Shown piece by piece: positions 13,796 through 33,202 of a stretch of 37,975 nt of DNA (positions within the stretch are counted from its first letter, which is position 1; every line of letters begins with the position of its first letter). This stretch comes from a virus (lineage: Duplodnaviria; Caudoviricetes): IMG/VR virus record IMGVR_UViG_3300032242_001019, positions 1-37,975 of that record. The stretch is one strand, 5' to 3'. The notes beneath the pieces are model-generated. The model ran no database searches and had not been told where the DNA came from. It worked only from the letters and a program-made list of their open reading frames with translations. A program made the translations under genes and the position numbers.

Positions 13796-13807
13796 AACAT
13801 TCTCCTA

Positions 13808-15145: not shown

Positions 15146-15347
15146 GTTGTTTCCTTTGTTCTTTGGTTTCACTGATCCAGAATCCATCTTTGTTTAAACT
15201 CATACCAGCAGCCGTCATTTCTTCTTCGGTCATACATCTGCGGTCGATTCCAAACTTGCCAATCCTGTGTAATTCAAATGGATAGTTGCTGTTAAACCTT
15301 TGTTTACACGTACCGCATTCGTTTCGGTTACCCACTAGTGGTTTCAT
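15117..15347 (-). CDS. FDxHR-type phage zinc-binding protein
   Basis: CGTC..RFNS...FELHRIG...RRC....M...GM......W. Confidence 0.65.
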   Translation of the reverse strand: MKPLVGNRNECGTCKQRFNSNYPFELHRIGKFGIDRRCMTEEEMTAAGMSLNKDGFWISETKEQRKQRGHHHAEES

Positions 15348-16326: not shown

Positions 16327-16568
16327 TCCTTTGGTGTTTTTACGTTGAAAAAATAATTCTCTGAATCTTTGATGCGCTGACCTTTGTAGCCAAGTCTCAA
16401 CATAGCTTCAACAAAAGATTCATTGCAGATGTATTGACCCATCTTTCTTTCGACAAAATGTTTCAAGCCATAACTTGTGATTGTTTTATTAATGGTTTTT
16501 CTTGCGGGTGCATTGCCTGCCTTTACCCACTTGATTACCAGTAAAACTTCTTTAGTTACACTAGCCAT
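16323..16568 (-). CDS. Hypothetical protein (SYGLKH..E...G.YI.N family)
   Basis: Start MASVTK with an AGGAG RBS; 81 aa, basic. Confidence 0.55.
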   Translation of the reverse strand: MASVTKEVLLVIKWVKAGNAPARKTINKTITSYGLKHFVERKMGQYICNESFVEAMLRLGYKGQRIKDSENYFFNVKTPKE

Positions 16569-17274: not shown

Positions 17275-17462
17275 TTGATTCCATTCTCCAATTTAAAAAT
17301 TAACAACTCCAACTCATGTTCAATATATTCTTCAATATATTCAACTACATCTTCAGCAGACATTTCTTTCTGCGAAACACCTAACGTTATATCGTCAAGT
17401 AATTCGTAAACTCGTTCTGCAAGATCCAAATTGGTTTCATTGCTCTGAGCTACCTTGCTCAT
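17271..17462 (-). CDS. Small acidic hypothetical protein
   Basis: Start MSKVAQ with a GGAGGT RBS; 63 aa. Confidence 0.5.
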   Translation of the reverse strand: MSKVAQSNETNLDLAERVYELLDDITLGVSQKEMSAEDVVEYIEEYIEHELELLIFKLENGIK

Positions 17463-18321
17463 TAGTTCCGACCTCCGATTGGTATTGACTACACCATTCG
17501 GCAACTCCGCAATAGTTTCCTGTGCATCTGACGGGTTCACCTTTTCTAGTTTCGACATATCCTTTTTCCTTTTCTGCCAACTCTGTGGCTTCTTCGATTG
17601 ACTTAAATAACTTGATGGCTGTTTTACGGCCTTCCCTCTTTACGGCAAATACAGTCTCCCGCATCCACCTATCCTCATCAGAGCAGAGCGGTAGCTCTTC
17701 TCCAAAGTCCTGAAACATCTTGGCATTCCGATGTTGTTCTAATCTGTCCCGAACGTAGGTCTCAGTCTTCACCGCATCCCACATTGGAATATCCACCATG
17801 TGAATAGGGGCTTTAGGATATCCATCCTTCTTCTCGTGGCGACTGAAATCCCTGATGAAAGCACAGATCTGAAGTCCAGCAACTTTACGTTTCTTTACCT
17901 TCTCAACTAACCATTTATAGACATTCAGTTGTTGTTCCCATTCGATCTTGTCTTGCATGACTGCCCACGCAGAAGTGAACTTGTAGTCAATGATGACGAT
18001 CCCGTCAGGGGTTTCTTTCTGTAAATCGATCTGTCCAGAGATGGCTATCTCGTCTACATTGATAAATAACCTCTCCTCCTGTATATACCCTTCAGTGATG
18101 CCTCGCTCCATTACTACGTGCAAGGCCGACCCTAGCAACTGCCATAGGTTGTCAGAGACATCCTGAACCACCCTATCGCCATACTGATCTTGCAGTCGGC
18201 GTATACGTGGGGGTGACATCAATTCAGTTACGCTATACTGCGATGCTCCTTTAGAGTAATATTCCTTTGTCGCTAAAGTCATTAGCGTCTCAGGAACGTT
18301 CCATTTGTTAGTAATTTGCAT
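17437..18321 (-). CDS. PD-(D/E)XK exonuclease (RecB/Cas4-like), recombination partner of Sak3
   Basis: G.ALH...EERL...SGQIDL...IIDYK...QLNVY with a C-terminal Cys cluster (PLC...RC...YC...WC). Start MQITNKW with a GGAGG RBS. Confidence 0.8.
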   Translation of the reverse strand: MQITNKWNVPETLMTLATKEYYSKGASQYSVTELMSPPRIRRLQDQYGDRVVQDVSDNLWQLLGSALHVVMERGITEGYIQEERLFINVDEIAISGQIDLQKETPDGIVIIDYKFTSAWAVMQDKIEWEQQLNVYKWLVEKVKKRKVAGLQICAFIRDFSRHEKKDGYPKAPIHMVDIPMWDAVKTETYVRDRLEQHRNAKMFQDFGEELPLCSDEDRWMRETVFAVKREGRKTAIKLFKSIEEATELAEKEKGYVETRKGEPVRCTGNYCGVAEWCSQYQSEVGTNEQGSSEQ

Positions 18322-18342
18322 TGACCCTCCTATAGGTGTTGT

Positions 18343-18801
18343 ATGGATGAATTGAATAATATCACTATTGAAAACGAATTGCAAGCACTTTCATTATATA
18401 TTTTAGGCGAGCCTGCAAGCAAAGCAAACTCACGCAGGATGGTGCGTTTTGGCAACATGTCTCGTTTGATCAAAAGTCAAAAGGCTTTGGATTATTCTGA
18501 AATGTTTAAACAGCAATGCAGGCCGCTGGCAACCCTGATGACTGGAGATCTGCGTGTGATCATGAAGATTTATTACGCCTCCCGCCGTCCTGATTTAGAT
18601 GAGAGCTTGATCCTTGATCTGATGCAGGGATTGATCTATGAGAATGACAGGCAAGTCAAGGAACGCCATGTGTATTGGGGGCTAGACCCTGATAACCCAA
18701 GAGCAGAGATTATTGTCGAGGGGATTCCCACCATTGCGCCGATAAAAAAGCCCCGCACTAAGGCGGGGCAAAAGACAACTGCAAGCCTGCAAAGAAAATG
18801 A
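18343..18801 (+). CDS. rusA: RusA-like Holliday junction resolvase
   Basis: GEPASKANSRR...RRPDLD...ILD.MQG.IY.NDRQV...D..NPRAEI. Confidence 0.75.
   Translation: MDELNNITIENELQALSLYILGEPASKANSRRMVRFGNMSRLIKSQKALDYSEMFKQQCRPLATLMTGDLRVIMKIYYASRRPDLDESLILDLMQGLIYENDRQVKERHVYWGLDPDNPRAEIIVEGIPTIAPIKKPRTKAGQKTTASLQRK
18355..18384 (-). promoter_or_regulatory. Sigma70-like leftward promoter of the recombination/accessory operon
   Basis: Minus strand TTGCAA-N17-TATTAT with an extended -10 TG. Confidence 0.6.
18744..18769 (-). terminator. Rho-independent terminator (minus strand)
   Basis: Minus strand GCCCCGC-CTTAGT-GCGGGGC-TTTTTT. Confidence 0.65.
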
Positions 18802-18980
18802 AAATGACTTGCAGGGGAATATTAGCACATATTAGAATAAAGGCACATCAAGAGATGTAGAGATTGGTGGGAAGAAGTCGGTCATTGGCGCTCTGAACTG
18901 CAACGTCTGGCCAGCCAGTTGTAGTTAACGCTTTCATCCCGATCCTCCACGCAGGTCATGACTGCAACAGTCTCTACTTC

Positions 18981-19064
18981 TGTTGGTGTGCAACGGGTTA
19001 GCGCCGTTGTAAACTCCTATTTGAGTTTGGAACACAACACACTGCTTTATGTGAAACACCAACA
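18981..19064 (+). ncRNA. Cloverleaf-like structured RNA (not a canonical tRNA; strand uncertain)
   Basis: Closing stem TGTTGGTGT/ACACCAACA with three hairpins: GCAACGG/CCGTTGT, AAACTC/GAGTTT and CACA/TGTG. Confidence 0.5.
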
Positions 19065-19086
19065 ACCCTACGTTTTACTCAGGTAC

Positions 19087-19115
19087 TTCACCTGCCTTTA
19101 TTTTTGTTATATACT
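19087..19115 (+). promoter_or_regulatory. Sigma70-like promoter of the replication operon
   Basis: TTCACC-N17-TATACT; predicted start near 19122, at the 5' end of the structured leader. Confidence 0.55.
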
Positions 19116-19121
19116 GCGCTC

Positions 19122-19240
19122 ATAGTTAGGTGTGGAAGCCAAACTGAAAGCCGTTAGATCTGATCCCGACCCCGAATGGGGTAGCGTTGCTCACAAAGCA
19201 GTGTTCTTCCACCGGGGTCAGTTCTAACGGCTTTTTTTTG
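19122..19240 (+). ncRNA. Structured leader/attenuator ending in a U8 tract
   Basis: Stems AAAGCCGTTAGA/TCTAACGGCTTT and CTGATCCCG/CGGGGTCAG, two internal hairpins, and GTGGAAG (19132) complementary to CTTCCAC (19206). Confidence 0.55.
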
Positions 19241-19508
19241 TCTCCATTTTTTCTATAACTCATTCACTGGTCGGTTAACAGTAGCGGTGAATGTTTAAAC
19301 CCCCCACTATGGGAAAGACAAGGAAGCAGGGGTACGGGTGGCGAAGTTAGCGCCCTATTGTCGAACGGCTGACGAGTCACGTGGCTCCGGAGAGCATGGT
19401 GTAAAGGGCTTAGGATAGGCTAAGTCCGTCCACCAAAGAGCATCCCCTTGGGGATGCAATGACGGCAAGTAAAGATATGACGGCTAAGACAGGGGGTTAT
19501 CACTAACC

Positions 19509-19940
19509 ATGCGTAAAGAATTCAGCACGGCACTTCACGATCAGTATGACTCCTACGGCAAGGCCAAGGTTAAGGCTTATTTCATGAAGGCTTACGGGGT
19601 TTTCCTGATGGAGAATGAAGACCGCTATGCGGTCGATCTTGTGGCTTACAAAGATGGAAAGAAGTTAGGGTATGTTGAGGTTGAGGTTAGGGAATCTTGG
19701 GGTGATAATGAATTCCCGTTTCCCACCTTGCACATCCCTGAGAGAAAAGGTAAATTGTTAAACAATGATTTGAAAACGGTGTTGGTCTCTGTCAACAAAA
19801 TTGGCACTCGGGCCTTTCTTTGCGATGGTGAGGTTATCCTTGCCTCACCCATCCAAGAGCGCAGTAATAAGTATGTCCAACAGGGTGAGAAGTTTTACCT
19901 TGTTGACCCCGCTCTAATTAAACTAATTGAATTGAGGTAA
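19509..19940 (+). CDS. PD-(D/E)XK-fold nuclease-like protein
   Basis: YAVDLV.....LGYVEVEVR..W...LHIPERK.K; restriction-endonuclease-like core with ExE. Confidence 0.5.
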   Translation: MRKEFSTALHDQYDSYGKAKVKAYFMKAYGVFLMENEDRYAVDLVAYKDGKKLGYVEVEVRESWGDNEFPFPTLHIPERKGKLLNNDLKTVLVSVNKIGTRAFLCDGEVILASPIQERSNKYVQQGEKFYLVDPALIKLIELR

Positions 19941-19943
19941 AGA

Positions 19944-20186
19944 ATGGCAACTCGCAATTACAAACAAGAATATGCAACGCAGAAAGAAAGAAATGAACAC
20001 CCCGACAGGATGGAAAGGCAAAGAGCTAGACGCAAGCTTGATGCCGAGGGGGTAAACAGACAAGGCAAGGACGTGGCACATGTCAAGGCTTTATCAAAAG
20101 GGGGCAGTAATAAGGACGGCGTTAAGTTGCAGCCTCCCAGCGTGAATCGCTCGTTTAAACGGAAGTCTGATGGCAGCATGAAATGA
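19944..20186 (+). CDS. Small HNH-like endonuclease
   Basis: GKDVAHVKALSKGGSN...NRS; GAGGT RBS. Confidence 0.6.
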   Translation: MATRNYKQEYATQKERNEHPDRMERQRARRKLDAEGVNRQGKDVAHVKALSKGGSNKDGVKLQPPSVNRSFKRKSDGSMK

Positions 20187-21850
20187 ATCCCGAGTTCATT
20201 GAGCAGTTCCATTTCACCGACACACTCAGGGTTACGTGTCCTGACTGTCGTGATGAGCGTAAGAAATCATCATCAAAAGACATGAGGCTGACCCGTCAAC
20301 CAGACGGGGCAGTTCTCTACCATTGCCATCATTGCCAAACAAACGGGTCAGTTCAACCCAAGGAGAGATATGTGTCTGCCGTTCCCAACATTCAAGTAGT
20401 CAGTAACGCACTGACGACCCCTCACTATGATTACCTCAAGTCGAGGGGGATATCAAAAGAGACCGCAGATAAAATGAAGCTGTTTGCGGCGGATAAGTTC
20501 TTCGGTCGTTTAAACAAAACCAGCGCAGCGATCGGCTTTCCGTATTACCGAGACGGCGCTTTGGTGGCGGTTAAATACCGAGCCTTTCCCGATAAAGACT
20601 TTACGCAGGAATCAGGGGGAGCGCATGATTTCTTTGGAATAGATCACGTGGTTAAGGGTAAACCCTTGATCATAGTAGAAGGTGAAATCGATGCCCTGAC
20701 CCTCATGGAGGCAGGGGTAGAGAACGCAGTCTCAGTTCCTAGCGGTGCTCCCATCAAGGTAGCGGATGGCAAGGTGTCGCCATCAGAAGACAAAAGATTT
20801 GCCTTTGTGTGGAACGCTAGGGAAGTTATTGATTCTGCGCCTTATGTGATTATCGCCACCGATCAGGACACCGCAGGACAAGCGTTGGCTGAAGAGTTGG
20901 CAAGAAGGATAGGTAAAGACAAATGTCGGCTGGCCAAGTTCGACATGAAAGATTTAAACGAGGTATACCTTGATGACCCCTTTCGGATAGAAGATATATT
21001 AAACAACGCCACGCCCTACCCAATCGCAGGGTTGTCCACGGCCGAGACCTACATGGAGCGTTTAAACGACCTGTACGCAGCGGGAACGGGTAAAGGCGCT
21101 TCAACTGGCTATTCTTCGCTGGATAACGTTTACACGATAGCGACATCACAGTTGTCCGTGGTTACTGGTTATCCTTCTTCAGGCAAGTCCAACTTTGTGG
21201 ATCAACTGATGGTCAACTTGGCCAAGAACGATGACTGGAAGTTTGCAGTATGTTCGTTTGAGAATCAGCCCGAGATCCACATCTCAAGGCTTATGGAGAT
21301 CTACACCAAGAAAAGGTTTTTTGATGGCAAAGAACGGATGACTCAGGAGGAAAAGGATCATGCGTTTAAATGGGTCAACGAACATTTCCTGTTTATCGAT
21401 ACAAACGGGGAAGAACCAAGTACATTGGAATCCATTCTTGAACGGGCAAAGGTGGCGGTGAAAAGAATGGGGATACGGGGTATGGTGATTGACCCGTACA
21501 ACTACATCGATTTAAACAGGGAATCGACCGAGACCGAAGCTATTTCCAATATGCTATCCAAGGTTCAAAGGTTTGTTAAAAGGCACGACATTCATTGTTG
21601 GTTCGTAGCTCACCCCTCCAAAATAAACCGCAGTGGTGTGGAACAACCAAGGCCTGACGGCATGGCTATATCAGGATCAATGGCATGGTGGGCTAAGACA
21701 GATTGTGGAATCACAATCCACAGAAAGGATAACTATGTAGAGGTGGCAGTTTGGAAATGTAGGTATAGATGGGTGGGTACGCAGGGGGAAACGACCCTTC
21801 TATATAACAAGACATCGGGCACATACTCCGAGAACCTCGACACCTTCTAG
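20183..21850 (+). CDS. T7 gp4/Twinkle-like primase-helicase
   Basis: CPDC...CHHC zinc finger, TOPRIM motifs IVEGEIDAL and ATDQD, SF4 Walker A GYPSSGKS, VIDPY and VAHP. Confidence 0.9.
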   Translation: MNPEFIEQFHFTDTLRVTCPDCRDERKKSSSKDMRLTRQPDGAVLYHCHHCQTNGSVQPKERYVSAVPNIQVVSNALTTPHYDYLKSRGISKETADKMKLFAADKFFGRLNKTSAAIGFPYYRDGALVAVKYRAFPDKDFTQESGGAHDFFGIDHVVKGKPLIIVEGEIDALTLMEAGVENAVSVPSGAPIKVADGKVSPSEDKRFAFVWNAREVIDSAPYVIIATDQDTAGQALAEELARRIGKDKCRLAKFDMKDLNEVYLDDPFRIEDILNNATPYPIAGLSTAETYMERLNDLYAAGTGKGASTGYSSLDNVYTIATSQLSVVTGYPSSGKSNFVDQLMVNLAKNDDWKFAVCSFENQPEIHISRLMEIYTKKRFFDGKERMTQEEKDHAFKWVNEHFLFIDTNGEEPSTLESILERAKVAVKRMGIRGMVIDPYNYIDLNRESTETEAISNMLSKVQRFVKRHDIHCWFVAHPSKINRSGVEQPRPDGMAISGSMAWWAKTDCGITIHRKDNYVEVAVWKCRYRWVGTQGETTLLYNKTSGTYSENLDTF

Positions 21851-21866
21851 CTCATGGGGTGAGCCT

Positions 21867-22061
21867 TGTTTAAACGCAAGGCCGCCCGCCAGAAAGAACT
21901 CGTCCCAGGAACAGTTGTTTAAACGCATTCCCTGGAGATAACAGCGGTCTTCTGTTTAAACGCACAATCCTGGGAGAGAATTGACAGCGGCTGCTGGTGG
22001 TATGTTTAAACGGCATCTTCTGGCAGAACATCCAGATCCCGCTTCAGGATTTGTTTAAACG
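21867..22061. repeat. Array of five TGTTTAAACG with 27-40-nt spacers
   Basis: Cores at 21868, 21917, 21954, 22004 and 22053 (periods 49, 37, 50, 49). Confidence 0.9.
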
Positions 22062-22078
22062 ATCCATCGCATTCACCC

Positions 22079-22104
22079 AAAAAAAAGCGCCCCGAAAGGC
22101 GCTT
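22079..22104 (-). terminator. Rho-independent terminator of the leftward early operon
   Basis: A8 run merging into the AAGCGCC-CCGAAA-GGCGCTT hairpin, right after the stop at 22107. Confidence 0.75.
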
Positions 22105-22106
22105 AA

Positions 22107-22331
22107 CTATTTACATTTATATACCGCTCCAAACATTGTCTTGTACTGGCCAAAGGCACGTGGGTTTCGGTCAAACCCCATCTTGTAAACCCACCAATGG
22201 CCATCGTACTTGATGTATTTCTCCCCCTTTTTGACCTCCATGTCAGAGTTAATAAGCTCAACGATGTGATCGTATTTGTATGTCTGCTTTAGGAAATCGG
22301 GGTCACGGCACGTCAGGGCTTTAACCTTCAA
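22107..22331 (-). CDS. Hypothetical protein
   Basis: 74 aa; last gene of the coupled operon. Confidence 0.55.
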   Translation of the reverse strand: MKVKALTCRDPDFLKQTYKYDHIVELINSDMEVKKGEKYIKYDGHWWVYKMGFDRNPRAFGQYKTMFGAVYKCK

Positions 22332-22552
22332 TGCATGGGCTTTGTTTTAGGTGCGACAAGCTCGTCATAGAGGACAGAAGAGTAGTTCAGGAAGTCTTCC
22401 CTCGTGACGTTGTTGTCTCTCATGATGTTTAAACAAACACTCATAAGGGTAGCAAAGGCGACCTCCTGCTCTATTTCGTTTTCGATCAACAGGTCAACGA
22501 CCTTGTCATTTAGCTCAACGATTTGTTTTAATGGATTCATATGTTTTCCCAT
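22328..22552 (-). CDS. Hypothetical helical protein
   Basis: 74 aa; overlaps its neighbours in the operon. Confidence 0.55.
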   Translation of the reverse strand: MGKHMNPLKQIVELNDKVVDLLIENEIEQEVAFATLMSVCLNIMRDNNVTREDFLNYSSVLYDELVAPKTKPMH

Positions 22553-22703
22553 TCAATAAATTGGCAATTTTCTCTGCGTCTTCTTTTGAATCAAAGACGG
22601 CCATTTTTTGATAACTGTATATGCCGTTTAAACATACACTGCGGCCAACCTCGTATGACTCGTCTGTATGATCCTTGGCGAACACCTTCCATTCTGAATT
22701 CAT
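22515..22703 (-). CDS. Hypothetical protein
   Basis: GGAGG RBS; F.SKEDAEK.A..LN motif. Confidence 0.6.
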   Translation of the reverse strand: MNSEWKVFAKDHTDESYEVGRSVCLNGIYSYQKMAVFDSKEDAEKIANLLNGKTYESIKTNR

Positions 22704-22933
22704 ATGCCCTCCACTCGTTTTACCAAGTCCATTGCATCGGGCTCATAGGGTGCGAGCGCCTTGATAATGTCGTACATCTGAGGGGCGAGGGCAATCATTC
22801 TCGCATTCTCCCTCTGTGCCTCGATGGTCAAAATCTTAGATGAGCAGTCGGCAATCCTTACGTCTCCTGCCTGCGTGTATTCCCACACTGTATTTTTATC
22901 GGGCGAACCGATCCACCATTGTTTAAACATCAT
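22700..22933 (-). CDS. Hypothetical protein (NAR.IA.AP family)
   Basis: Start MMFKQWW behind GGAG; IADC...ENARMIALAP.M. Confidence 0.6.
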   Translation of the reverse strand: MMFKQWWIGSPDKNTVWEYTQAGDVRIADCSSKILTIEAQRENARMIALAPQMYDIIKALAPYEPDAMDLVKRVEGI

Positions 22934-23018
22934 GCTCTCCAAAAAATAAGGTCTAATAAAATCACGGCAAACGCAAGTACGTATGCCAACGTCAATGCCC
23001 AAGAATCATCTACTGGTC

Positions 23019-23204
23019 TCATTCTTCTATCTCCCATAATCTGTTTTTAAATTCAGTGATCAATGCCTCGTCTGACATTTTGTCATAGGCAATCCCAAAC
23101 CGCAGAATGTAATCCAAGTATTCCACGTCATCATGTTGCATGGCCTGACGCACTGTCTCAATGTCATCCTCGACCAATCGGTCAATCATTACTTGTCTGT
23201 TCAT
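23019..23204 (-). CDS. Small acidic hypothetical protein
   Basis: GAGGAGG RBS; 61 aa. Confidence 0.6.
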   Translation of the reverse strand: MNRQVMIDRLVEDDIETVRQAMQHDDVEYLDYILRFGIAYDKMSDEALITEFKNRLWEIEE

Positions 23205-23378
23205 TTAATAATCCTCCTCGATTTGCTCGTCCACGTCTGACTGGTCATAACCTGTCAGGATCTCAGGCCGATAACGGCTCAACACCTCATCAACACACCT
23301 AGAGCATACCCTCGCAAGAGGGATGTTCCGAGCGTCTGTCTCCCACCATGACTCATCTGTAGAGTGATTGCATCTCAT
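23205..23378 (-). CDS. 57-aa Cys-containing protein (not in the ORF track)
   Basis: MRCNHSTDESWWETDARNIPLARVCSRCVDEVLSRYRPEILTGYDQSDVDEQIEEDY. ATGA-coupled upstream, and its stop abuts the next ATG. Confidence 0.6.
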   Translation of the reverse strand: MRCNHSTDESWWETDARNIPLARVCSRCVDEVLSRYRPEILTGYDQSDVDEQIEEDY

Positions 23379-23596
23379 TGTGATTCCCCTAGTACATAAT
23401 CAATTGCCGAACTAATCACGTCCCAATTGATTCCAATGCACGCATCATGAGAGCGGACAATCACCTCCATTACCCTATGCACCTGAGCAGGCGTGAGGGT
23501 GACCCCATCATCCTCGGCCTGCTGAATGATATCCTCATCACACCATGATTCGATGATCTCCCAATTGCCGTTGTTGTCTTGAATTAATTTTGCCAT
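23375..23596 (-). CDS. Small acidic hypothetical protein
   Basis: W..EDI...A...G..LT...HDA.IGINWDVI; AAGGGGG RBS. Confidence 0.65.
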   Translation of the reverse strand: MAKLIQDNNGNWEIIESWCDEDIIQQAEDDGVTLTPAQVHRVMEVIVRSHDACIGINWDVISSAIDYVLGESQ

Positions 23597-23769
23597 GTTG
23601 TTTCCCCCTTATTGAGTTTATTAAGATTGATTACTTCCTTGCGCTTGGCCTGTCTTTTCAGAATGACCCTCGCCCTCGCCCCGTACTTATCGCCCGATTG
23701 TGGAGCGCAACAGGGGCAGGCGAACCCCCCGTTGCCCACGACTGAAAACCTCTTGTAAATGCCTTTCAT
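23584..23769 (-). CDS. Small basic CPCC protein
   Basis: GFACPCC followed by a basic helix; AAGGGGG RBS. Confidence 0.55.
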   Translation of the reverse strand: MKGIYKRFSVVGNGGFACPCCAPQSGDKYGARARVILKRQAKRKEVINLNKLNKGETTWQN

Positions 23770-23778
23770 GATTCCCCC

Positions 23779-25326
23779 TTATGCTACTAGTTTGATTTGT
23801 TTAAACGAGGCGTTTGCCAAGTCCCCAATGTCTCTGATACACACGTTGTTCTTGTATACACTCGACACGTCCAACTCGATGCCCACGCCCACTGTTGTGA
23901 TGCCAAGGTTATTGCCCTGCTTGATCTGACTTCTTACCTCATCCTTCCAACCATTGCCATCTGTCAAGACGAATGCAATCTTACGGGTCTCGGGGCGAGC
24001 GTTCAGGATCTCATGGGCATAACGTATCGCAAAGTAATCATTAGTTGAGTAGTTGGTATACAAGCGTGACAAGATCTGCTTGGCCTTGGCCACTGGGGTG
24101 TTGAATGGGACAAGCACTGAGGTGCGGAAATGAAAGGCAAGGATCTGCACGGCCACGCCTGCCTGAGCGAGGGTCTCATACAATGCCACGCAAGTCTTGA
24201 CTGCATTTCTCGCCCGTGACGCAGTCATGGATCCTGACGCATCGAGGACAATCACAACCGCAGAATCAATACCGCCCTCTTCATGATGGCGTTTAAACAC
24301 ACGCACATTACCCGTTGCAATTGATGCGAGCGCAGAGGAGTTGATCTGCCCTGCCTTGCGATTCAATTGGAATTCGTCAAGACCTGACTTCTCGAATAGT
24401 TGACGCACCTCATGACGCAACTTTGAGGGCACGACCACTGTAGTGTCAATGTTGACCGCTGGGTGAGTGTGATCCCCTGCATCTCCGAGTCCTGCGCTCT
24501 TGTCATATGATCCAATGCCTGCCTGACTCTCAGGAACCTCACAATTGGGCTCTGTTTCCCGTGCGTCTTGGCCATCGACTGGGGCGGTCGCCACGCCTTG
24601 ATCACCCTCGCCTGCACCCTCACCCTCACCCGATCCCGATTGATCGTTTGGAGCGTCTCCTGTGGCCTCCTGAGTGCCCTCCTCGCCCTTGCCTTGACCT
24701 TTGCCTTGACCCTTGTCTTGACCTTGTTCGGGTGACTGCTCAGGCAACTGTTTCAATTGCGACATGATCCACTCTGCAATTTTCAAAGTGTCATAGCTTG
24801 ACTTGGCACTGTCGATGCGAGCGCTCGCCTCATCAAATATTGGAGCGAGTCCCTGTGGCAGTGCGATTCGCTTGGCATAGCGTCTGCCGATGCAGGCGAA
24901 GAGCCAAGGATAATTACGGGGGTCATCCATGCCGTCCTCGCCTGCCTCAGCGATCATCTGATTGATCAGCTTGGCGAACACGCCTGCAATGTTGCCTGTC
25001 ATGCCATCGGCAATCGCTCTGCGCTCGATCCACACGTCCTCGACTGCATTGTGCAGTTGTCTCATGTATTGGGTTGTGGCCTTGACTGAGAAGTCGGTGT
25101 ATTTGACATGACACAATTCATGGATGACGAACCCAACATATCTGTCGAGAAAAGCCTGAGTCAAGACTGCATCATCTGCCACGTCTGCAAGCTTGACCTC
25201 GCCCTGCGAGTTGACGCAGGCAGTGGGGATATTGTCCCAAGTAATCCTACTGATTTTCAATGCACTATTGGCACTGATTTTGTTGAGGATCGACTCAACC
25301 CCTGCCTTGAATGTATGACCTCTCAT
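23779..25326 (-). CDS. vWA (MIDAS) protein with an N-terminal HExxH domain (CobT-like AAA+ partner)
   Basis: IHELCHVKYTDF...NAVEDVWIE, a G/Q/E-rich linker, VLDASGSM and LTDG. Confidence 0.85.
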   Translation of the reverse strand: MRGHTFKAGVESILNKISANSALKISRITWDNIPTACVNSQGEVKLADVADDAVLTQAFLDRYVGFVIHELCHVKYTDFSVKATTQYMRQLHNAVEDVWIERRAIADGMTGNIAGVFAKLINQMIAEAGEDGMDDPRNYPWLFACIGRRYAKRIALPQGLAPIFDEASARIDSAKSSYDTLKIAEWIMSQLKQLPEQSPEQGQDKGQGKGQGKGEEGTQEATGDAPNDQSGSGEGEGAGEGDQGVATAPVDGQDARETEPNCEVPESQAGIGSYDKSAGLGDAGDHTHPAVNIDTTVVVPSKLRHEVRQLFEKSGLDEFQLNRKAGQINSSALASIATGNVRVFKRHHEEGGIDSAVVIVLDASGSMTASRARNAVKTCVALYETLAQAGVAVQILAFHFRTSVLVPFNTPVAKAKQILSRLYTNYSTNDYFAIRYAHEILNARPETRKIAFVLTDGNGWKDEVRSQIKQGNNLGITTVGVGIELDVSSVYKNNVCIRDIGDLANASFKQIKLVA

Positions 25327-26717
25327 GATTGCACCCCCATGTACTTGTTGAAAATTTCAGCGTTTAAACAGGCAGACCCAATGCCCCGTAAGGCGATGCC
25401 CGAGTCCTCGACCTGACGATTGACCATCACTGATTCCCATGCCTCGACCATGCCAAGGTAAGGTACGGCCTGAATGAACCCGATCACTTGACGAATGGAT
25501 GGTGCATCGAGTATGTCCCCCGTCTCGACCTTGGCACGTGCGGTATGCACGGCCTTGATCACGTGAGTGGCCACTTCCCGATGGCATCCTGTATGCTTGA
25601 CCACCGCATCGATTTCAAGATGCACGGGCAGGAAAGTAAATTTAATCACGACAGTGAATCGATCGCCCAACGCAGAATTAGTAGTGCGTGTCCCTGCATA
25701 TCGGCCAGTGGTGTCACCATTGAGCAAAGTATTGTCTGCCCCGAAAATCATCACGCCCTCGGCCTTGCTCCACACCTGACCCCCGTATGTCACCTTGGCA
25801 TTGGGTTCGAGAAAACCATTCAAGGGTGCTAACTCACCCTGATCTGCGTTGGTGATCTCATCAAGCAGGATCACTGTCGAGGGGGCAGTGTAAGCAGTGA
25901 GGAAGTCCCCACGTTTAAACACTGTCGCCCCGTTCTCAAGACCCACATCACCCAAATAATCCGATGCAGTGGTGTACTTGTGGAAGTTATAACGCATGAA
26001 CCCACGGCCTGTACGTGCTGAGAATTGCTCGGCAGTCTGCGATTTCCCTGTGCCCTTCTCGCCCCCGAACCACGTATTGCGACCCGTGTCCTGAGCGAAT
26101 GCGAGGGTTCGGAGGATCGACTCAGTCCAAATAAAGCAGGGGTCAATTGCAGGGGCAGACGCATCATTGTAGATATCGAATTCAAAGGGGAGGTCGATCC
26201 CGAAAACATCAAGGCAGGACTTGCGATCCACTTTGATCACAGGGGTGAGGTTGGCGACCTTGGCCTCAGACCCTGTTGCAATGACGGCCTGTTTAAACGG
26301 GGCAAAGGCGTTGTCGATCAGGGTCTCAAGCTTGCGATTGACCTCTGCCTGATCCACTCCAACGCTGACCTCGGCAATGTCGGCCAGTGAGTCCTCAATC
26401 CTCTGAATGGCCTTGGACTGCACGTCTAGGGTGTTGGTCAATGCCTTGATTTTCTCGACCGATTCCAACGCCACGGCCTGAGCATTATTGGCCACGGCCT
26501 CAAGCGCAGGGTTGGCCGTACTGACAACGGGGGCGAAAGGTAATGCCTGCTTTATGTCATCAAGGGTCAACTTCCCTGCATCGATTTGGCCATCAAGCCA
26601 TTGGATCATGACTGACTTATCTGTCGGTGGTCTTGGATCACCTGAAAATTTCAGGTAAGCCCCCGTGATTGTGGCGAGTGGCAGGGTCACCATAATTTGT
26701 TTGTTGACGATTCCCAT
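25323..26717 (-). CDS. MoxR/CobS/CbbQ-like AAA+ ATPase
   Basis: Walker A GEKGTGKS, Walker B ILLDEI, NT...Y.GT...N.AL.DRF and SIRQ; start MGIVNK with a GAGGA RBS. Confidence 0.85.
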   Translation of the reverse strand: MGIVNKQIMVTLPLATITGAYLKFSGDPRPPTDKSVMIQWLDGQIDAGKLTLDDIKQALPFAPVVSTANPALEAVANNAQAVALESVEKIKALTNTLDVQSKAIQRIEDSLADIAEVSVGVDQAEVNRKLETLIDNAFAPFKQAVIATGSEAKVANLTPVIKVDRKSCLDVFGIDLPFEFDIYNDASAPAIDPCFIWTESILRTLAFAQDTGRNTWFGGEKGTGKSQTAEQFSARTGRGFMRYNFHKYTTASDYLGDVGLENGATVFKRGDFLTAYTAPSTVILLDEITNADQGELAPLNGFLEPNAKVTYGGQVWSKAEGVMIFGADNTLLNGDTTGRYAGTRTTNSALGDRFTVVIKFTFLPVHLEIDAVVKHTGCHREVATHVIKAVHTARAKVETGDILDAPSIRQVIGFIQAVPYLGMVEAWESVMVNRQVEDSGIALRGIGSACLNAEIFNKYMGVQS

Positions 26718-26728
26718 GATTTTGATCC

Positions 26729-27313
26729 TCAAACTAAGGTTAAAGCTTGGCCATCGATCGGGCAGGCAGGCAGGCGAGGGTTGCCATACTGGTCATATGC
26801 CCACTTGGCAGTCAGGCGAATGGTATAACCGCAGGCACACATGGCCTTGAGCATCCTAGTGCCCTGCGTCTTGCGTGTGGCGTATGACAGTTGAGCGTGA
26901 GGGTAGTCACCGAGTGACTGAATGATTGCCCCGTAGCGTGTCATGAAGTCGAGCGCACCCGATGTGGCCTTGTATCCACGGGTTGCAGAGGGGACTAAGC
27001 CCATTGCATCGGCAATGCGTTTAAACATTGCACCATGATTCATTGCCCCGTTCGTGGTGTGGCAAAGCTCATGGATCACACACTCAGCGACTGCCTGCGG
27101 ATCGGCCAACTCGGGGGAGATTAGAATCTCATAGTGGTTATCGCCACTATTTTGGCAGGGAAAGCACTCGCCAATGGCACGTGAGCGCTTGGCGTTGAGA
27201 GGGAAACCGCAGGTGATGCGAATGGCCTGTGGTAAGGGTGACCCGTAAAGGTCAAACATGGGTCGCAACTCTTGAATGAGTGCGACAAGATACTCTTCAC
27301 GTGTTGAAAACAT
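26729..27313 (-). CDS. SprT-like zinc metalloprotease with a C-terminal zinc ribbon
   Basis: IGEC...EILISP...HELCH...HG..FK..A..MGL and CACGY.IR...CP; GGAGG RBS before MFSTREEY. Confidence 0.75.
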   Translation of the reverse strand: MFSTREEYLVALIQELRPMFDLYGSPLPQAIRITCGFPLNAKRSRAIGECFPCQNSGDNHYEILISPELADPQAVAECVIHELCHTTNGAMNHGAMFKRIADAMGLVPSATRGYKATSGALDFMTRYGAIIQSLGDYPHAQLSYATRKTQGTRMLKAMCACGYTIRLTAKWAYDQYGNPRLPACPIDGQALTLV

Positions 27314-27375
27314 AAAGTCCTCCAAAAGTAGTGCGACATTGCACTGATAAGCCCGTGGGGCTTACCGCTGAAATG

Positions 27376-27519
27376 TCAATCTAACAATGTGTGTAAGAAT
27401 TTCTGATCGGCCATCGGCATGACGCACACAGAGAACGGGTGCTTATTGGCATAAGCTTTAAGCCTTGCGAGATTCTCAGCGGTGGGGTTGGCCTTGTATT
27501 TGTCTAGAATTTTCTGCAT
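27376..27519 (-). CDS. 47-aa first gene of the early operon (not in the ORF track)
   Basis: AGGAG RBS; MQKILDKYKANPTAENLARLKAYANKHPFSVCVMPMADQKFLHTLLD. Confidence 0.6.
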   Translation of the reverse strand: MQKILDKYKANPTAENLARLKAYANKHPFSVCVMPMADQKFLHTLLD

Positions 27520-27560
27520 TTTATTTACTCCTGTTTAAACTGCTTACCTACCTACAACGC

Positions 27561-27591
27561 AATGATATCACTATCGGTTGACAAGGTGCAA
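27561..27591 (-). promoter_or_regulatory. Sigma70-like early leftward promoter
   Basis: Minus strand TTGCAC-N18-TATCAT with extended TG and an AT-rich UP-like tract at 27592-27612. Confidence 0.6.
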
Positions 27592-27917
27592 GTAATATTT
27601 TAATTTATTTTATCTGAGGGCAATCCAAGGACATATATATTAGAGCACGGCCTGCACTGCGTTTGTGTATCTAAGTATTCATTTTGAGTTTAAGCATAGA
27701 ATGTGCCAAGGGTCAATAACTTAACATAATCAGACCGATTTAAACGGCCTACAATCGATTTTCAGGGTCTCAGGCTACCTTACCATTGGAAAATAATTTT
27801 AAGCGCTCCTGAGCGATCCTAGTGGATATCAGAAACCAAAGTATTACAGGCCATTTCAGTGTACTATAGGTTTAGAATTTAAGGCATTTCAACGGCAATT
27901 GAGTACTAATACTGTAA

Positions 27918-28030
27918 TGTGCATAAAGCTGGGTGTAATCAGTGGATAAGTGATACTGTATAGAAAACCTGTTGATAACATCCTGTGGATAACTTTGAGT
28001 TATGCACACCTGTGGATAAGCTGTTGACAA
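27918..28030. promoter_or_regulatory. Cluster of DnaA boxes
   Basis: TTWTNCACA matches at 27918, 27984, 28000 and 28011; near-matches at 27941, 27970 and 28022. Confidence 0.7.
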
Positions 28031-28051
28031 GAACGGCACTGTAATTACAAT
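28024..28051 (+). promoter_or_regulatory. Sigma70-like promoter of terS
   Basis: TTGACA-N16-TACAAT. Confidence 0.6.
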
Positions 28052-28098
28052 CAGGGTTAGTCAGTGTTCAAGGTGATTACTACGGGGAGTGTTTAAAC

Positions 28099-28713
28099 AT
28101 GGGTAAGACAACCAGTGAAGAGTACTTGGCCAAGCTTGAGGAGCTTGAGTCGAGCGAGGAGATTTTGGAAACGGGGGAGATGAGCGAAGCTGAACGGATG
28201 GCAATGCTCGCAGATAAACCAAAGGTGAGAAGAGACGGCAATGTAGTGGGATCAATGCATAAGAGAGAACGGCCATTGACGGCCTCTCAGATCGCATTCA
28301 GCAACTGCCTTATCAGAGGGGCGACTCTCAAAGTCGCCTATCGGGAGGCCTACCCTAATTCAAAGGCTAACGATGCCTGTGTGATGTCCAACGCCAGTAA
28401 GCTTGCAAAGGATATCAGGATCAAGAGACTGGTCAATGATGGGGTTGAAGAGACCATCGAACACTTGAGTGAGGATGTGGCAGGGACTAAGCGATACGTG
28501 CTGAAACAATTGTTGGCACATAGTAAGGAGGCAAAACAGGAAGGCACTAAATTAAAGGCACTGGAACTACTGGGCAAGTCTGTCGGCCTCTTCATTGATA
28601 AGACTCAAGCAGAGATTAAGCAGGCAACACCTGATGAACTCAAACGGGAACTGGCCACACACTTGAAACTACTCAACAACGTGCGTCCTCTTACTGGTAT
28701 CAAGGCCGTGTAA
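28099..28713 (+). CDS. terS: Terminase small subunit
   Basis: LT..Q..F...L..G.T...AY..AY...ASKL HTH and KLKALELLGK..GLF; lies upstream of terL. Confidence 0.7.
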   Translation: MGKTTSEEYLAKLEELESSEEILETGEMSEAERMAMLADKPKVRRDGNVVGSMHKRERPLTASQIAFSNCLIRGATLKVAYREAYPNSKANDACVMSNASKLAKDIRIKRLVNDGVEETIEHLSEDVAGTKRYVLKQLLAHSKEAKQEGTKLKALELLGKSVGLFIDKTQAEIKQATPDELKRELATHLKLLNNVRPLTGIKAV

Positions 28714-28917
28714 ACGCAAGCGTGTAAACAGGTGGCACGTGTAAACGGGGTGTGGCCGTGACCCACTATACCCCGACCCCCATCCCTAGCCAGCTACCAC
28801 CCTGCCAGCCTGTACGCTCTAATCCCCACAAACAAATACCCCACCCCCTCAAATAGAACGTTCTCATCCCAAATTCCATTTCAATACCCCGGGGGTATAT
28901 ATATTTTCAAAAAGGTC

Positions 28918-28946: not shown

Positions 28947-29002
28947 ACTGATTGTTTAAACAGGAAGTGAGAAGCATAGAATATGCGTATAGGAGCAAAG
29001 CG

Positions 29003-29233
29003 ATGACTGAGAAGGATCAGCTCATATTAGATTTCATTAAAGCCTACATTAAGTTGCATGGCGTAGCGCCGTCTTATTCTGTAATAGCCCGTGGCGTGAA
29101 TAAGCAGTCTAAGTCCAATATACATAGGGTGGTACATAAATTAATAGATGAGGGCAAGATAGCCATGAAGCCTCATAAGGCAAGAAGTATTAGGGTGACG
29201 GACAGATCTGTAAAAGCTATGGTTAATCTATGA
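29003..29233 (+). CDS. Stand-alone LexA-type winged-helix DNA-binding protein (no peptidase domain)
   Basis: MTEKDQLILDFIKAYIKLHGVAPSYSVIA...SKSNIHRVVHKL..EG.I...P.KARSI; AGGAG RBS. Confidence 0.75.
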   Translation: MTEKDQLILDFIKAYIKLHGVAPSYSVIARGVNKQSKSNIHRVVHKLIDEGKIAMKPHKARSIRVTDRSVKAMVNL

Positions 29234-29243: not shown

Positions 29244-30743
29244 ATGACATTGCTCACCAAAGATGAGATATCAGCCTACTTATCTATTGTGGATAAGGTG
29301 GATGAGAATGAGCAGAATAAGATTAGGCAGTTGTTAGAATATGACAGGGTAGAAAGATGCCGTGAGTCTTTTATATTCTTTGCTTCTCAGATGTGGCCTG
29401 TGTTTATATCGGGTAAACATCATCAGATCATGGCTGATGCTTTTGAGCGTGTAGCCGCAGGAAGTCTTAAGAGATTGATCATCAATATGCCTCCAAGGCA
29501 TACCAAATCAGAGTTTGCCTCATTTCTTTTGCCTTCATGGTTTCTGGGTAAGTTTCCAGAAAAGAAGATCATACAGACAGCACACACCGCAGAACTAGCC
29601 GTAGGCTTTGGCAGGAAAGTTAGGAACCTTGTTTCATCGGATGTTTATGGAAGAGTATTTGATACAAAGTTATCGTCAGATAGTAAAGCGGCTGGAAGAT
29701 GGAACACTCATTTGGGTGGCGACTATTTTGCTATCGGTGTTGGCGGCGCTGTTACAGGTAAAGGGGCTGATCTTTTAATCATAGATGACCCTCATTCGGA
29801 GCAGGAGGCCAAGCAAGGTAACCCTGCGGTGTTTGATCAGGTATATGAGTGGTATACATCTGGCCCTCGGCAGCGTTTACAGCCGGGAGGAGCCATCATT
29901 ATTGTGATGACTCGCTGGTCTAAGAGAGATTTGACAGGCCAAATCCTCAAGAATCAGGTAAAAGAAGGCGTAGATCAGTGGGAAATCATTGATTTTCCTG
30001 CTATTTTGCCTTCAGGAACCCCTCTTTGGCCGGGATTTTGGTCTAAAGAAGCCTTAGAAAGCCTTAAATCTGAACTTCCAGTGTCTAAATGGGAAGCGCA
30101 GTATCAACAAAACCCCACCTCCGAGGAAGGGGCAATTATTAAAAGGGATATGTGGAAAATATGGCCAGATGAATATCCTCCGGCATGTGATTACATCATC
30201 CAAAGCTGGGACACGGCCTTTGAAAAGAACAACAGGGCCGACTTCTCAGCCTGTACAACGTGGGGGGTGTTCTATCATCCCAATTCCCAAGGCGTTTCTA
30301 AGGCCAATATCATCATGTTGGATGCGTTTAAGGAGAGGATGGAGTTCCCAGATCTCAAGAAGAAGGCTCTTGAGATGTTTAAACAATGGAACCCAGATAC
30401 ATTAATCGTTGAAAAGAAGGCCGCAGGAGCGCCGTTAATCTATGAATTGAGAAAGATGGGAATCCCGCTTTCTGAGTATACACCGAGCAAAGGAAGCGAT
30501 AAGATAGCACGTGTAAACGCAATATCCGACTTGTTTGCATCCGGCGCAGTATGGTGTCCAGATACAAGATGGGCCGATGAGGTCATGGAAGAGCTGGCCG
30601 CATTCCCCAATGGAGACCATGACGACTTGGTTGACTCAAGTTCTCAAGCTCTGTTGCGTTTCAGACAAGGAGGGTTTATCACCATCGATTCAGATGAAGA
30701 AGATGAACCTATCTACCACAGACGTAAATTGGAGTACTATTAA
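29244..30743 (+). CDS. terL: Terminase large subunit
   Basis: INMPPRHTKS, TGKGADLLIIDD, MTRW, YQQNP, SWDTA and HDDLVD. Confidence 0.95.
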   Translation: MTLLTKDEISAYLSIVDKVDENEQNKIRQLLEYDRVERCRESFIFFASQMWPVFISGKHHQIMADAFERVAAGSLKRLIINMPPRHTKSEFASFLLPSWFLGKFPEKKIIQTAHTAELAVGFGRKVRNLVSSDVYGRVFDTKLSSDSKAAGRWNTHLGGDYFAIGVGGAVTGKGADLLIIDDPHSEQEAKQGNPAVFDQVYEWYTSGPRQRLQPGGAIIIVMTRWSKRDLTGQILKNQVKEGVDQWEIIDFPAILPSGTPLWPGFWSKEALESLKSELPVSKWEAQYQQNPTSEEGAIIKRDMWKIWPDEYPPACDYIIQSWDTAFEKNNRADFSACTTWGVFYHPNSQGVSKANIIMLDAFKERMEFPDLKKKALEMFKQWNPDTLIVEKKAAGAPLIYELRKMGIPLSEYTPSKGSDKIARVNAISDLFASGAVWCPDTRWADEVMEELAAFPNGDHDDLVDSSSQALLRFRQGGFITIDSDEEDEPIYHRRKLEYY

Positions 30744-33202
30744 TGAGTATCGATAAAGCTTTATATTCGCAAGGCATAGCCTCTGAACCTGATTTAGAAA
30801 TTGAGATTGAGAACCCTGATTCGGTATCCATCGATACAGGGGATGTAGAAATAACCCTAGAACCCGGTCAGGACTTGGGCGGGGATTTTGATCAAAACTT
30901 GGCCGAAGTTCTAGATGATAGAACTCTACAGTCCATTGGTTCGGAACTAATCTCCCTCGTGGACGCAGATATCAATAGCCGTTCAGATTGGGCTGAGTCC
31001 TACGTCAAAGGCCTTGAGGTATTGGGTTTGAAGTATGAGGAGAGGACAGAGCCTTGGAATGGAGCCTGTGGAGTTTATTCAACTGTATTGACTGAAGCTG
31101 CGATTAGGTTCCAAGCTGAGTCAATTATGGAGTCATTTCCTGCTGCTGGGCCTGTCAAGACTGAAATCTTTGGAACCCCGACAAAAGAGAAGGATGATGC
31201 TGCGGCTCGTGTCGAAGAAGACATGAACTACAAGATTACCGAGAAAATGCCGGAATATAGACCAGAACATGAACGCATGTTATTTGGACTAGGGTTATCC
31301 GGATCTGGCTTTAAGAAGGTTTATGATGACCCTGTGCTAGGAAGACAAGTGTCTCTCTATGTCACCGCAGAAGATATCATTGTTCCATACGGCGCTTCAA
31401 GTCTTAGAACCACAGAACGTGTAACGCACGTCATGCGGAAAACCAAAAATGAACTCAAGAAACTACAAGCAACAGGGTTTTACAGGGATGTTGATTTGGG
31501 TGAACCCCAAAACATCATGTCCGACATTGAGAAGAAGAAAGCCAACCAGCAAGGCTACAAAGCTCTTGATGATGATCGCTATCAGTTCCTTGAAATCTGC
31601 ACAGACTGGGACATCGATGGATTAGAAGAGCTGGATGAGAATGGAGAGCCATCAGGCATCGCAGTTCCTTATGTGATCACCATAGATCGTGGCACAGGTA
31701 AAGTCCTGTCTATCTACAGGAACTGGAAGGAAGATGATGAAAAGAAACTACCCCGCCAGCATTTTGTGGATTATTGCTACATTCCGGGCTTTGGCTTTTA
31801 TGGCCTCGGTCTTATACATATCATTGGCGGTTACGCTCGTGCTGGGACTTCCCTTATTCGCCAATTGGTTGATTCAGGGACATTGTCGAATTTGCCGGGC
31901 GGACTCAAAACCCGTGGCGCAAGAATCAAAGGAGATGACACCCCTATCGCCCCCGGTGAATTCAGGGACGTAGATGTCCCCAGCGGAGCAATCAAAGACA
32001 ACATCATGCCGCTTCCTTACAAGGAGCCGTCTGCAACTTTGTTAACCCTGTTGAATCAAATCACTGATGAAGGACGCAGATTAGGTTCTATTGGTGATCT
32101 TCAGATTTCTGATATGTCGGCCAACGCCCCGGTAGGGACAACCCTAGCATTGCTTGAGCGTACATTGAAGACCATGTCTGCCGTGCAGGCCCGTGTTCAC
32201 TACTCCATGAAACAAGAGTTCAAGCTCTTGAAGAACATCATTGCAGAGTATGCACCGTCAAAAGAAGAGTTTGATCCCGAGCGTGGCGACCATTTTGCCA
32301 GCCGGGAAGATTATGAAATGGTGGATGTTATCCCCGTATCCGATCCCAACTCCTCCACAATGGCGCAGAGGATTATGCAGTATCAGGCCATCATGCAGTT
32401 GGCACAAGGCGCACCGCAGATCTATAACCTACCCAATCTCCACAGGCAGATGATTGAGGTATTGGGGGTTAAAAACGGCGAGAAGCTGGTCTTGACGGAA
32501 GATGATGAGATGCCCAAAGACCCCGTCAGCGAAAACATGGGATTCCTCAAAGGAGAACCCACCAAAGCCTTCATGTATCAAGACCATGATGCCCATATTG
32601 CAGTGCACACAACCTTTATGCAAGATCCCTCTATTGCGGCACAGATGGGTCAAAACCCAATGGCCCAACAGATGCAGGCTGCGGTCATGGCTCATATTGC
32701 AGATCACTTGGCCTTCCAGTATAGGAAGCAGCTAGAAGATCAGGTTGGAGTGTCCCTGCCAGCGCCCGGAGAAGATCTACCGCCCGAGACGGAAGTCCAA
32801 CTATCCAGATTAGTTGCTCAGGCAAGTACCCAGCTTCTCCAATTGAACCAATCCAAGGCAGCGCAGGCACAGGCCCAACAACAAGCGCAGGATCCATTGA
32901 TCCAAATGCAGCAACAAGAATTGCAACTCAAGCAGCAAGAATTGCAGAGTAAATCACAGAAGATGCAATCTGATACCCAGCTGGCACAAGCCAAGCTTCA
33001 ATTGGAACAGCAAAGAATCCAAATTGAACAACAGAGAAATCAGCTCCAAGCGCAGTCTGAATCACAAAGAGTTCAGTCTCAAGCTGAGATCCAGATCAAA
33101 AAAGACCAGCAAACGATGCAAATGGAGATCATGAAACTCCAAGAGCAGGCAAGACAGGCTAACCAGAAGATTCAAACAGAGCTGTTTAAACGAGGTAAAT
33201 GA
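30743..33202 (+). CDS. Portal protein (P22-like, long Q-rich C-terminal coiled coil)
   Basis: 819 aa directly after terL; GSGFKKVY, PG.GFYG.GL and a Q-rich tail. Confidence 0.85.
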   Translation: MSIDKALYSQGIASEPDLEIEIENPDSVSIDTGDVEITLEPGQDLGGDFDQNLAEVLDDRTLQSIGSELISLVDADINSRSDWAESYVKGLEVLGLKYEERTEPWNGACGVYSTVLTEAAIRFQAESIMESFPAAGPVKTEIFGTPTKEKDDAAARVEEDMNYKITEKMPEYRPEHERMLFGLGLSGSGFKKVYDDPVLGRQVSLYVTAEDIIVPYGASSLRTTERVTHVMRKTKNELKKLQATGFYRDVDLGEPQNIMSDIEKKKANQQGYKALDDDRYQFLEICTDWDIDGLEELDENGEPSGIAVPYVITIDRGTGKVLSIYRNWKEDDEKKLPRQHFVDYCYIPGFGFYGLGLIHIIGGYARAGTSLIRQLVDSGTLSNLPGGLKTRGARIKGDDTPIAPGEFRDVDVPSGAIKDNIMPLPYKEPSATLLTLLNQITDEGRRLGSIGDLQISDMSANAPVGTTLALLERTLKTMSAVQARVHYSMKQEFKLLKNIIAEYAPSKEEFDPERGDHFASREDYEMVDVIPVSDPNSSTMAQRIMQYQAIMQLAQGAPQIYNLPNLHRQMIEVLGVKNGEKLVLTEDDEMPKDPVSENMGFLKGEPTKAFMYQDHDAHIAVHTTFMQDPSIAAQMGQNPMAQQMQAAVMAHIADHLAFQYRKQLEDQVGVSLPAPGEDLPPETEVQLSRLVAQASTQLLQLNQSKAAQAQAQQQAQDPLIQMQQQELQLKQQELQSKSQKMQSDTQLAQAKLQLEQQRIQIEQQRNQLQAQSESQRVQSQAEIQIKKDQQTMQMEIMKLQEQARQANQKIQTELFKRGK

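Follow-up and report, generated by a model that had tools for sequence, protein, structure and literature searches.

Our analysis of a 37,975-nucleotide stretch of an uncultured tailed phage (IMG/VR record IMGVR_UViG_3300032242_001019, positions 1 to 37,975; here called the window) centers on a block of early genes from which numerous restriction-type words have been almost completely removed. The purge stops abruptly on its right at a conserved non-coding element and fades gradually to its left (Table 1), and most clusters of related phages carry it on the same side of that element. We consider it likely that the block is first-entering DNA under restriction by multiple systems, with protection that is delayed and leaky. 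The phage belongs to a family of uncultured freshwater phages, and the window record is 63% complete.

An initial annotation, made from the sequence alone, had reported that GCNGC, CCNGG and CCGG are missing from 22646-28887, and counting confirms that each occurs 0 times there, with the sole GCNGC between 22646 and the terminator at ~22.1 kb lying at 22641. As had also been said, these words are present elsewhere (126, 36 and 43 in the whole window, respectively) and the block is no less GC-rich than its surroundings (GC 0.49 vs 0.46 downstream). The estimate that a few tens of each should be expected was accurate, as the local-dinucleotide expectation for 22100-28887 is 25 for GCNGC (1 seen), 26 for CCNGG (0) and 21 for CCGG (0). 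Among the words described as still common, GGCC (43), GATC (44) and TCGA (33) are so, whereas GCGC is mildly low (11 vs 21). Computed frequencies in the block are thus far from normal, and the depletion is larger than first noted, extending to GGNCC (0/26, observed/expected), CGNCG (0/16) and GGNNCC (2/26), as well as to the asymmetric words CCAGA (0/16), GAAGC (1/12) and ACAGC (1/14). Placing the 162 sites at random 100,000 times never reproduced the 6,247-bp gap, the largest simulated gap being 3,468.

The losses form two tiers. CGCG, GGWCC and GCATGC are at 0 across the whole window, where CCWGG occurs 3 times and CGWCG once, whereas CCSGG, GGSCC, GCNGC, CGSCG and CCGG are lost in the block alone. 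Because CCWGG is nearly absent from the whole window, the loss of CCNGG is partly window-wide. According to passages of PMC6286503, phages eliminate orthodox Type II palindromes, and GCNGC falls below expectation in only 22.5% of cases. The window-wide loss of CGCG, GGWCC and CCWGG resembles this genome-wide avoidance as those passages describe it; the second, block-only tier, which includes GCNGC, sets the present case apart.

The least likely of the explanations we weighed is that the block is a recent import from another host's phage, or that it lost its sites incidentally through composition, codon use or mRNA-level selection. The block does differ in GC and skew, and its proteins diverge faster than terL (26-60% vs 73-91%). 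However, the gene order is the same across the family, and the SprT and terL trees give largely the same main groups. In addition, the purge spans genes of both strands as well as non-coding DNA, the asymmetric words are missing on both strands, and synonymous-codon shuffling restores the sites: in 500 runs on the four large genes, no shuffled version was free of GCNGC, CCNGG, CCGG, GGNCC, CGNCG or CGCG. Import and composition are therefore largely refuted already.

The purge also reaches the protein sequences. Two adjacent alanine codons always create GCNGC, just as Pro-Gly creates CCNGG and Gly-Pro creates GGNCC. In the four large proteins of the block, Ala-Ala is at 0 against 16.6 expected, and Pro-Gly and Gly-Pro are each at 0 against 4.1, whereas the late-protein control of terL, portal and capsid has 17 Ala-Ala against 11.2 expected. 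At 11 alignment columns that are mostly Ala-Ala in non-purging relatives, the dipeptide is retained in 0/75 cells of the purged lineages, compared with 39/54 in late genes. The replacements are mostly conservative and varied and do not resemble deamination, as Val-Ala or Ala-Thr, the C-to-T expectation, account for 10/75 cells. One Ala-Ala of the MoxR-type ATPase, invariant in 13/13, is Ser-Ala in the clade of the window and Ala-Ser in the relatives G001 and G002, a difference that hints at separate removal. Among the best 120 of 165 homologues of the von Willebrand factor A (vWA) protein, Ala-Ala is missing from 32 (1.8 expected) and Pro-Gly from 81 (20.5 expected), although Gly-Ala is also low in the same set (21 vs 1.5), so some of the dipeptide bias is not driven by sites. 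Restriction pressure has been strong enough to rewrite conserved dipeptides.

The block module is syntenic among relatives whose terL is 73-98% identical. A pattern derived from the conserved element recovered at least 119 viral loci, at least 110 of them in the family, and flanks were taken for 80; the left/right test used 44 anchored loci with at least 3 kb on both sides, which form 36 clusters (G004 and G009 were left out). The localized avoidance in relatives whose absence would have spoken against the initial annotation is present: among the loci listed, 26 of the 36 clusters purge palindromes left of the element only. By motif, and again among the loci listed, these comprise CCNGG in 18 clusters, CCGG in 11, GGNNCC in 11, GGNCC in 9 and GCNGC in 8, and more rarely CGNCG (4), CGCG (4), GGCC (3) and AGCT (2). 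The words CGCG, AGCT, CGNCG and GGCC are block-only losses in some lineages and both-sided losses in others. CCWGG is avoided on both sides by 26/26 purging clusters; no CCWGG-tolerant cluster purges (0/6), and 4/30 avoiders do not purge. G001 and G002 lack GATC, AGCT, CGCG and nearly all CGNCG over the whole contig, and in G001 the complete purge reaches ~10 kb left of the element.

When nine purging genomes are pooled, the observed/expected ratio drops from 0.91 over the 3 kb to the right of the element to 0.03 over the 7 kb to its left, the latter value being circular because the motif sets were picked on that very segment. Held-out segments further left in the same genomes give 0.19, 0.24, 0.45, 0.71, 0.72 and 0.62, and CCSGG is at 0 from -7.5 to -0.5 kb in all nine. 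Within the window, the partial-depletion zone gives 13/36, 9/24, 13/18 and 27/39 going left. Gene order leftward from the element runs from accessory through replication and recombination to virion genes. A step on one side with a fade on the other is the pattern that ordered entry from an end predicts, and this polarity is consistent with the element being a genome end or packaging site from which the purged side enters first.

Entry of the block first could come about as follows. Packaging would start at the conserved element and run toward terL, so that the terS side would be packaged last and ejected first; ejection is last-in-first-out in lambda, T7 and SPP1. The hosts, probably freshwater Burkholderiales, would carry varied restriction systems, mostly of Type II. 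Any cut in the block would be lethal before expression of the leftward early operon, and later DNA would be increasingly but imperfectly protected, which would account for the gradient and for why a few motifs are lost window-wide. The end could carry a short terminal repeat, or be a pac start with an expendable first-entering overhang; either way the block would be the first unique DNA to arrive. The initial annotation had placed a genome end near 28.8-28.9 kb with the block entering first: the sharp step, the ~16-kb leftward fade and the 26/36 clusters support this indirectly, although an assembled contig of the best-matching run crosses the site.

Several further observations speak against entry from an end at the element. 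The element is crossed by an exactly matching 907-bp contig of run X1 and by most contigs of relatives. Contig starts at the element number 8/76 against 2.45 expected, a weak excess given that the interval was picked post hoc and the starts share no base, and one weakened further because C-runs break assemblies; a metagenome scan of 28 family loci gave no added contig-end pile-up there. Headful packagers are predicted to be free of such avoidance in passages of PMC12455610, and packaging here may be of that kind. Among the clusters, 4/36 show weak right-only signals, none at zero, and 10/36 lack a block-only purge, 4 of which avoid CCWGG all the same. Segments further right of the element give 0.87, 0.66, 0.50 and 0.88, such that the far right also drops to 0.50-0.66. 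The clusters are related to one another, the purge may go back to a single ancestral trait, and the leftward operon is also present in a clade that does not purge. Finally, no host restriction system was matched to any motif, and a C5 methyltransferase is present in only 4 of 41 genomes near the putative host. The tree did not show independent origins: the five non-purgers placed in it group in a single nested clade whose members have the same genes, which a single loss fits. In the X1 contig over the element, depth is 54 vs ~45, reflecting either a short repeat or words shared with relatives, and contigs of X2 break at 28774/28783, with no molecule-end pile-up among assembled contigs. Exact-match X1 contigs have depths of 44-46 in the block and 36-45 right of it, a modest test from one run of unknown library type; this flat depth gives no indication of a long terminal repeat.

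The initial annotation had likened the block to the T5 first-step segment, a loose comparison. Passages of PMC10644984 report that T5 and BF23 tolerate sites outside but not inside their first-entering segment and that the protector is not known, and those of 10.1101/866236 place DnaA boxes within the T5 segment. In both respects the likeness to these partial accounts holds, as sites are absent from the block and present elsewhere, and DnaA boxes lie inside it. However, the genomes here are ~60 kb with podovirus-type ejection proteins, terS lies inside the block with the DnaA boxes near its outer edge, there is no sign of a ~10-kb terminal repeat, and the inner (left) edge is a gradient rather than a stop. 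The lack of a long repeat by depth, together with the graded inner edge, indicates that the block is not a T5-type segment. No PHROG or Pfam match to A1/A2-type pre-early genes was found among the block open reading frames (ORFs), with no direct A1/A2 query made. A second precedent is Murciavirus and T7, for which passages of PMC12455610 describe that the position of a site relative to the leading end decides restriction, one Type I motif having been tested experimentally. As far as those passages go, variable early genes read away from the end and depletion polarised from one end are shared with our phages. The difference is that at least six Type II-like or asymmetric words are fully purged here over 7 kb, with amino-acid changes. 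A phage RNA polymerase and Ocr gave no match.

Alternatively, the block may be protected for its contents, a DnaA-dependent origin and the early operon, rather than for its time of entry, with genome ends elsewhere or variable; cuts elsewhere would be repaired or rescued by the phage Sak and exonuclease, and cuts in the block would not. We regard this as rather unlikely. The DnaA-box cluster does lie inside the block in 11/11 genomes (1-5 boxes at this place, at least two in 10/11), neither the window nor 134 further ORFs of relatives gave a DNA polymerase match, the window encodes Sak, exonuclease and RusA, and contigs run through the element. The purge, however, is lopsided about the DnaA boxes, with a step 0.9 kb to their right and a 16-kb fade to their left; terL and portal are equally essential and yet unpurged, and the recombination genes themselves lie outside the complete purge. 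An SOS-box-like sequence accompanies the terS promoter in 6/11 genomes by score. The boxes at terS suggest a host-DnaA origin or a host-regulated terS, possibly with a plasmid-like or carrier state. No integrase was found in five genomes, four of them at least 90% complete. Further right, a palindrome, GAACGTTC, at 28856-28863 and 28922-28929 flanks GGGGTATATA and is near GGGGTATATA in 7/11 genomes; it is a candidate operator of the LexA-like protein.

The words removed also raise the prospect that the phage avoids host methylation of its sites because Type IV or Type IIM nucleases of the next host would cut marked DNA, in which case entry may still set the location of the purge. Most of the purged palindromes are presumably cytosine-methyltransferase targets, and CCWGG, the Dcm site, is avoided window-wide. 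Passages of PMC6286503 list GCNGC as a Type IIM site and the Type IV sites SCNGS and YCGR, which overlap CCNGG and CCGG. This explanation is weakened because CCNGC, part of SCNGS, is kept (45 vs 50) and TCGA, part of YCGR, is abundant (33), and we judge it improbable. As for the putative host, terL is found on two contigs of Burkholderiales metagenome-assembled genomes (MAGs), although binning is weak evidence. The sampled DNA of those MAGs under-uses CGCG and GGWCC (0.75 and 0.76) or GGWCC and CCWGG (0.57 and 0.75).

A phage nuclease could instead destroy host DNA at these words and spare the block, which lacks them, a model proposed for T5 A1 in passages of 10.1101/866236. It would explain an early site-free block, and the window does encode HNH and PD-(D/E)XK nucleases. 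We nonetheless find it highly improbable, as no nuclease family was matched in the block, the motifs are at least six, unrelated and different between lineages, and sites are kept in the rest of the genome with no modification gene found. The initial annotation had seen no phage methyltransferase, and there is indeed no family match among the 47 window ORFs, no PF00145 or PF01555 match in five genomes (four of them at least 90% complete), and no methyltransferase among 134 non-redundant ORFs of 95-1400 aa from 10 relatives, for which the ORF caller missed some overlapping genes.

If the block does enter first, the protector of later DNA would most likely be a product of its leftward operon, at a guess either a small ORF or the set formed by the SprT-like protease, the MoxR-type ATPase and the peptidase-vWA protein. 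The initial annotation had likewise proposed that the block encodes functions disarming host restriction, but known anti-restriction families gave no match among the block ORFs, and the operon is retained in a clade that does not purge. The SprT-like protein scores below the cut-off of Pfam SprT-like, and its model (pLDDT 94) has SPRTN as its best fold (6mdx, Z 8.1, rmsd 3.1, 96 aligned), a tie with minimal archaeal zincins (Z 7.8); Foldseek gave no match at E 0.001 or better. The modelled structure shares the zincin fold with HExxH of the DNA-protein crosslink proteases SPRTN and Wss1, from which other minimal zincins are not separable by this comparison. In the peptidase-vWA protein, H69, E70, H73 and the MIDAS D-x-S-x-S are invariant in 95 homologues, and its model is nearest to the NorD vWA (E 4e-10). 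The MoxR AAA+ gene adjoins this MIDAS-bearing vWA gene, the arrangement of a MoxR-vWA chaperone pair. A cobaltochelatase CobST identity was rejected, since both proteins miss the curated cut-offs (CobS 57 vs 558 bits; CobT 32 vs 759 bits), and the score against TIGR01650 in particular indicates that the ATPase is not CobS proper.

Phage 'CobS/CobT' genes have been assigned other roles. A phage pair of MoxR and peptidase-vWA proteins is proposed for virion assembly in passages of PMC7824862, and the proposals in the passages of PMC7824862, PMC11288001 and PMC9503304 comprise virion assembly or cobalamin synthesis. The genes here differ in standing behind a SprT-like protease in a purged operon away from structural genes. 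One idea, which we consider unlikely, is that the three proteins form a sequence-independent counter-defence machine, acting on incoming DNA to unfold or cleave a wide range of restriction enzymes; with such a machine, one conserved operon could serve lineages that purge different motif sets. That the operon is kept in non-purgers means either that it has a role beyond restriction or that those hosts are without such systems. The cultured phage Mae-Yong1326-1 has a 366-bp terminal repeat and a CobS/CobT-like pair 0.87 kb from its end, reading inward, a placement that favors an end at the element in our phages. We do not count the words depleted at its left end as support, where the first 5.5 kb contain 3 of 122 TCGA (P 3e-4, uncorrected for 112 motifs), nor those of CRP-810, where only AT-rich words stand out. 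Our literature search, which covered few subscription papers, found no publication on this family, none tying cobS/cobT to anti-restriction, no description of this family's block and no account of dipeptide loss from site avoidance.

Outside the block, the window encodes a 2,941-aa probable ejection protein (3675-12500) with ART-PolyVal (ADP-ribosyltransferase-like) and LPD38 domains, an alternative candidate protector of later DNA, and on the minus strand a 134-aa ORF (13140-13544) with an RNA polymerase alpha C-terminal-like domain (Pfam E 2e-8), a possible transcription decoy. HTVC023P-type podoviruses resemble this phage in a terL that is 50-58% identical and a GroES-like gene beside the head genes, but have their own DNA polymerase A and a different early region. 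The passages searched give no termini for them, nor is there anything on termini in those of PMC8594841, PMC9599517 and 10.1101/2019.12.14.876532. In the relative G002, a beta-ketoacyl synthase-like gene sits amid tail and lysis genes (L110:12008-13126).

The left edge of the complete purge coincides with an array of the repeat GTTTAAAC, which has 42 copies in the window against 2.3 expected, in coding and non-coding DNA alike. All nine purging genomes hold 15-43 copies, and the non-purging G004 and G005 have almost none, over-representing CATTTAAA or ATGTAAAC in its place. The repeat is likely a binding site of a phage protein; as a host motif it was rejected, being unenriched in three MAGs (68 vs 110, 41 vs 45 and 2 vs 10 in the control). 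Arrays of 2-5 copies occupy the same place in G003, G007, G008, G009, L024 and L027 and are reduced or missing in G005, G006 and G001. The array contains the only three CCWGG of the window, and restriction-type words also lie between the array repeats in relatives. A short Burkholderiaceae MAG contig (L277; G012:C52:1250-1800) carries a dense GTTTAAAC cluster and a DnaA-box match, and is possibly a related element.

Table 1. Positions of the purged block and associated features in the window
Feature	Position	Strand	Description
Partial-depletion zone	12565..22100		Primase-helicase, RusA, exonuclease, Sak, SSB, small genes
Array of five GTTTAAAC	21868..22060		Left edge of complete purge, after primase-helicase; variable spacers
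Intrinsic terminator-like hairpin	22085..22104	-	Closes leftward operon
Purged block	22100..28887		GCNGC, CCNGG, CCGG, GGNCC, CGNCG, GGNNCC, CCAGA and others; one GCNGC at 22641
Eight small ORFs, 57-100 aa	22107..23769	-	Variable between lineages; no informative family; candidate anti-defence genes
Zincin-motif (HELCH) and vWA protein, 515 aa, 'CobT-like'	23779..25326	-	Pfam VWA; no Ala-Ala (6.2 expected)
MoxR-type AAA+ ATPase, 469 aa, 'CobS-like'	25323..26732	-	No Ala-Ala (5.7 expected)
SprT-like zinc metalloprotease, 193 aa	26729..27310	-	C-terminal four-cysteine module; first large gene of leftward operon
DnaA-box cluster	27918..28019		Four matches, directly upstream of terS promoter
Sigma-70-like terS promoter	28024..28054	+	11/12 match; SOS-box-like CTG-N10-CAG overlaps
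terS, small terminase	28099..28713	+	PHROG 51; Pam5 small terminase E 7e-5; within purged block; no Ala-Ala
Conserved non-coding element	28760..28900		GACCCAC, ACGCTCTAATCC, C-runs, GGGGTATATA; right edge of purge; candidate genome end/packaging site
LexA-like winged-helix protein	28952..29233	+	First gene right of conserved element
Large terminase and portal	29244..33202	+	Normal site density; control side

Avoidance of sites in first-entering DNA is already known from T5 and Murciavirus, and the multi-motif, graded and protein-altering form described here is new. The pattern predicts, from sequence alone, the genome end, the direction of entry and the restriction repertoire of the hosts for an abundant family of uncultured phages. 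A broad anti-restriction activity, the question left open by T5, can now be sought among about a dozen genes, including a MoxR/vWA pair that is usually annotated as a vitamin B12 auxiliary gene. If the SprT, MoxR and vWA proteins do act as such a machine, the 'cobS/cobT vitamin B12 genes' of many aquatic phages would encode proteases serving host takeover or anti-restriction, and the depletion gradient could be read as a clock that times DNA entry in uncultured phages.

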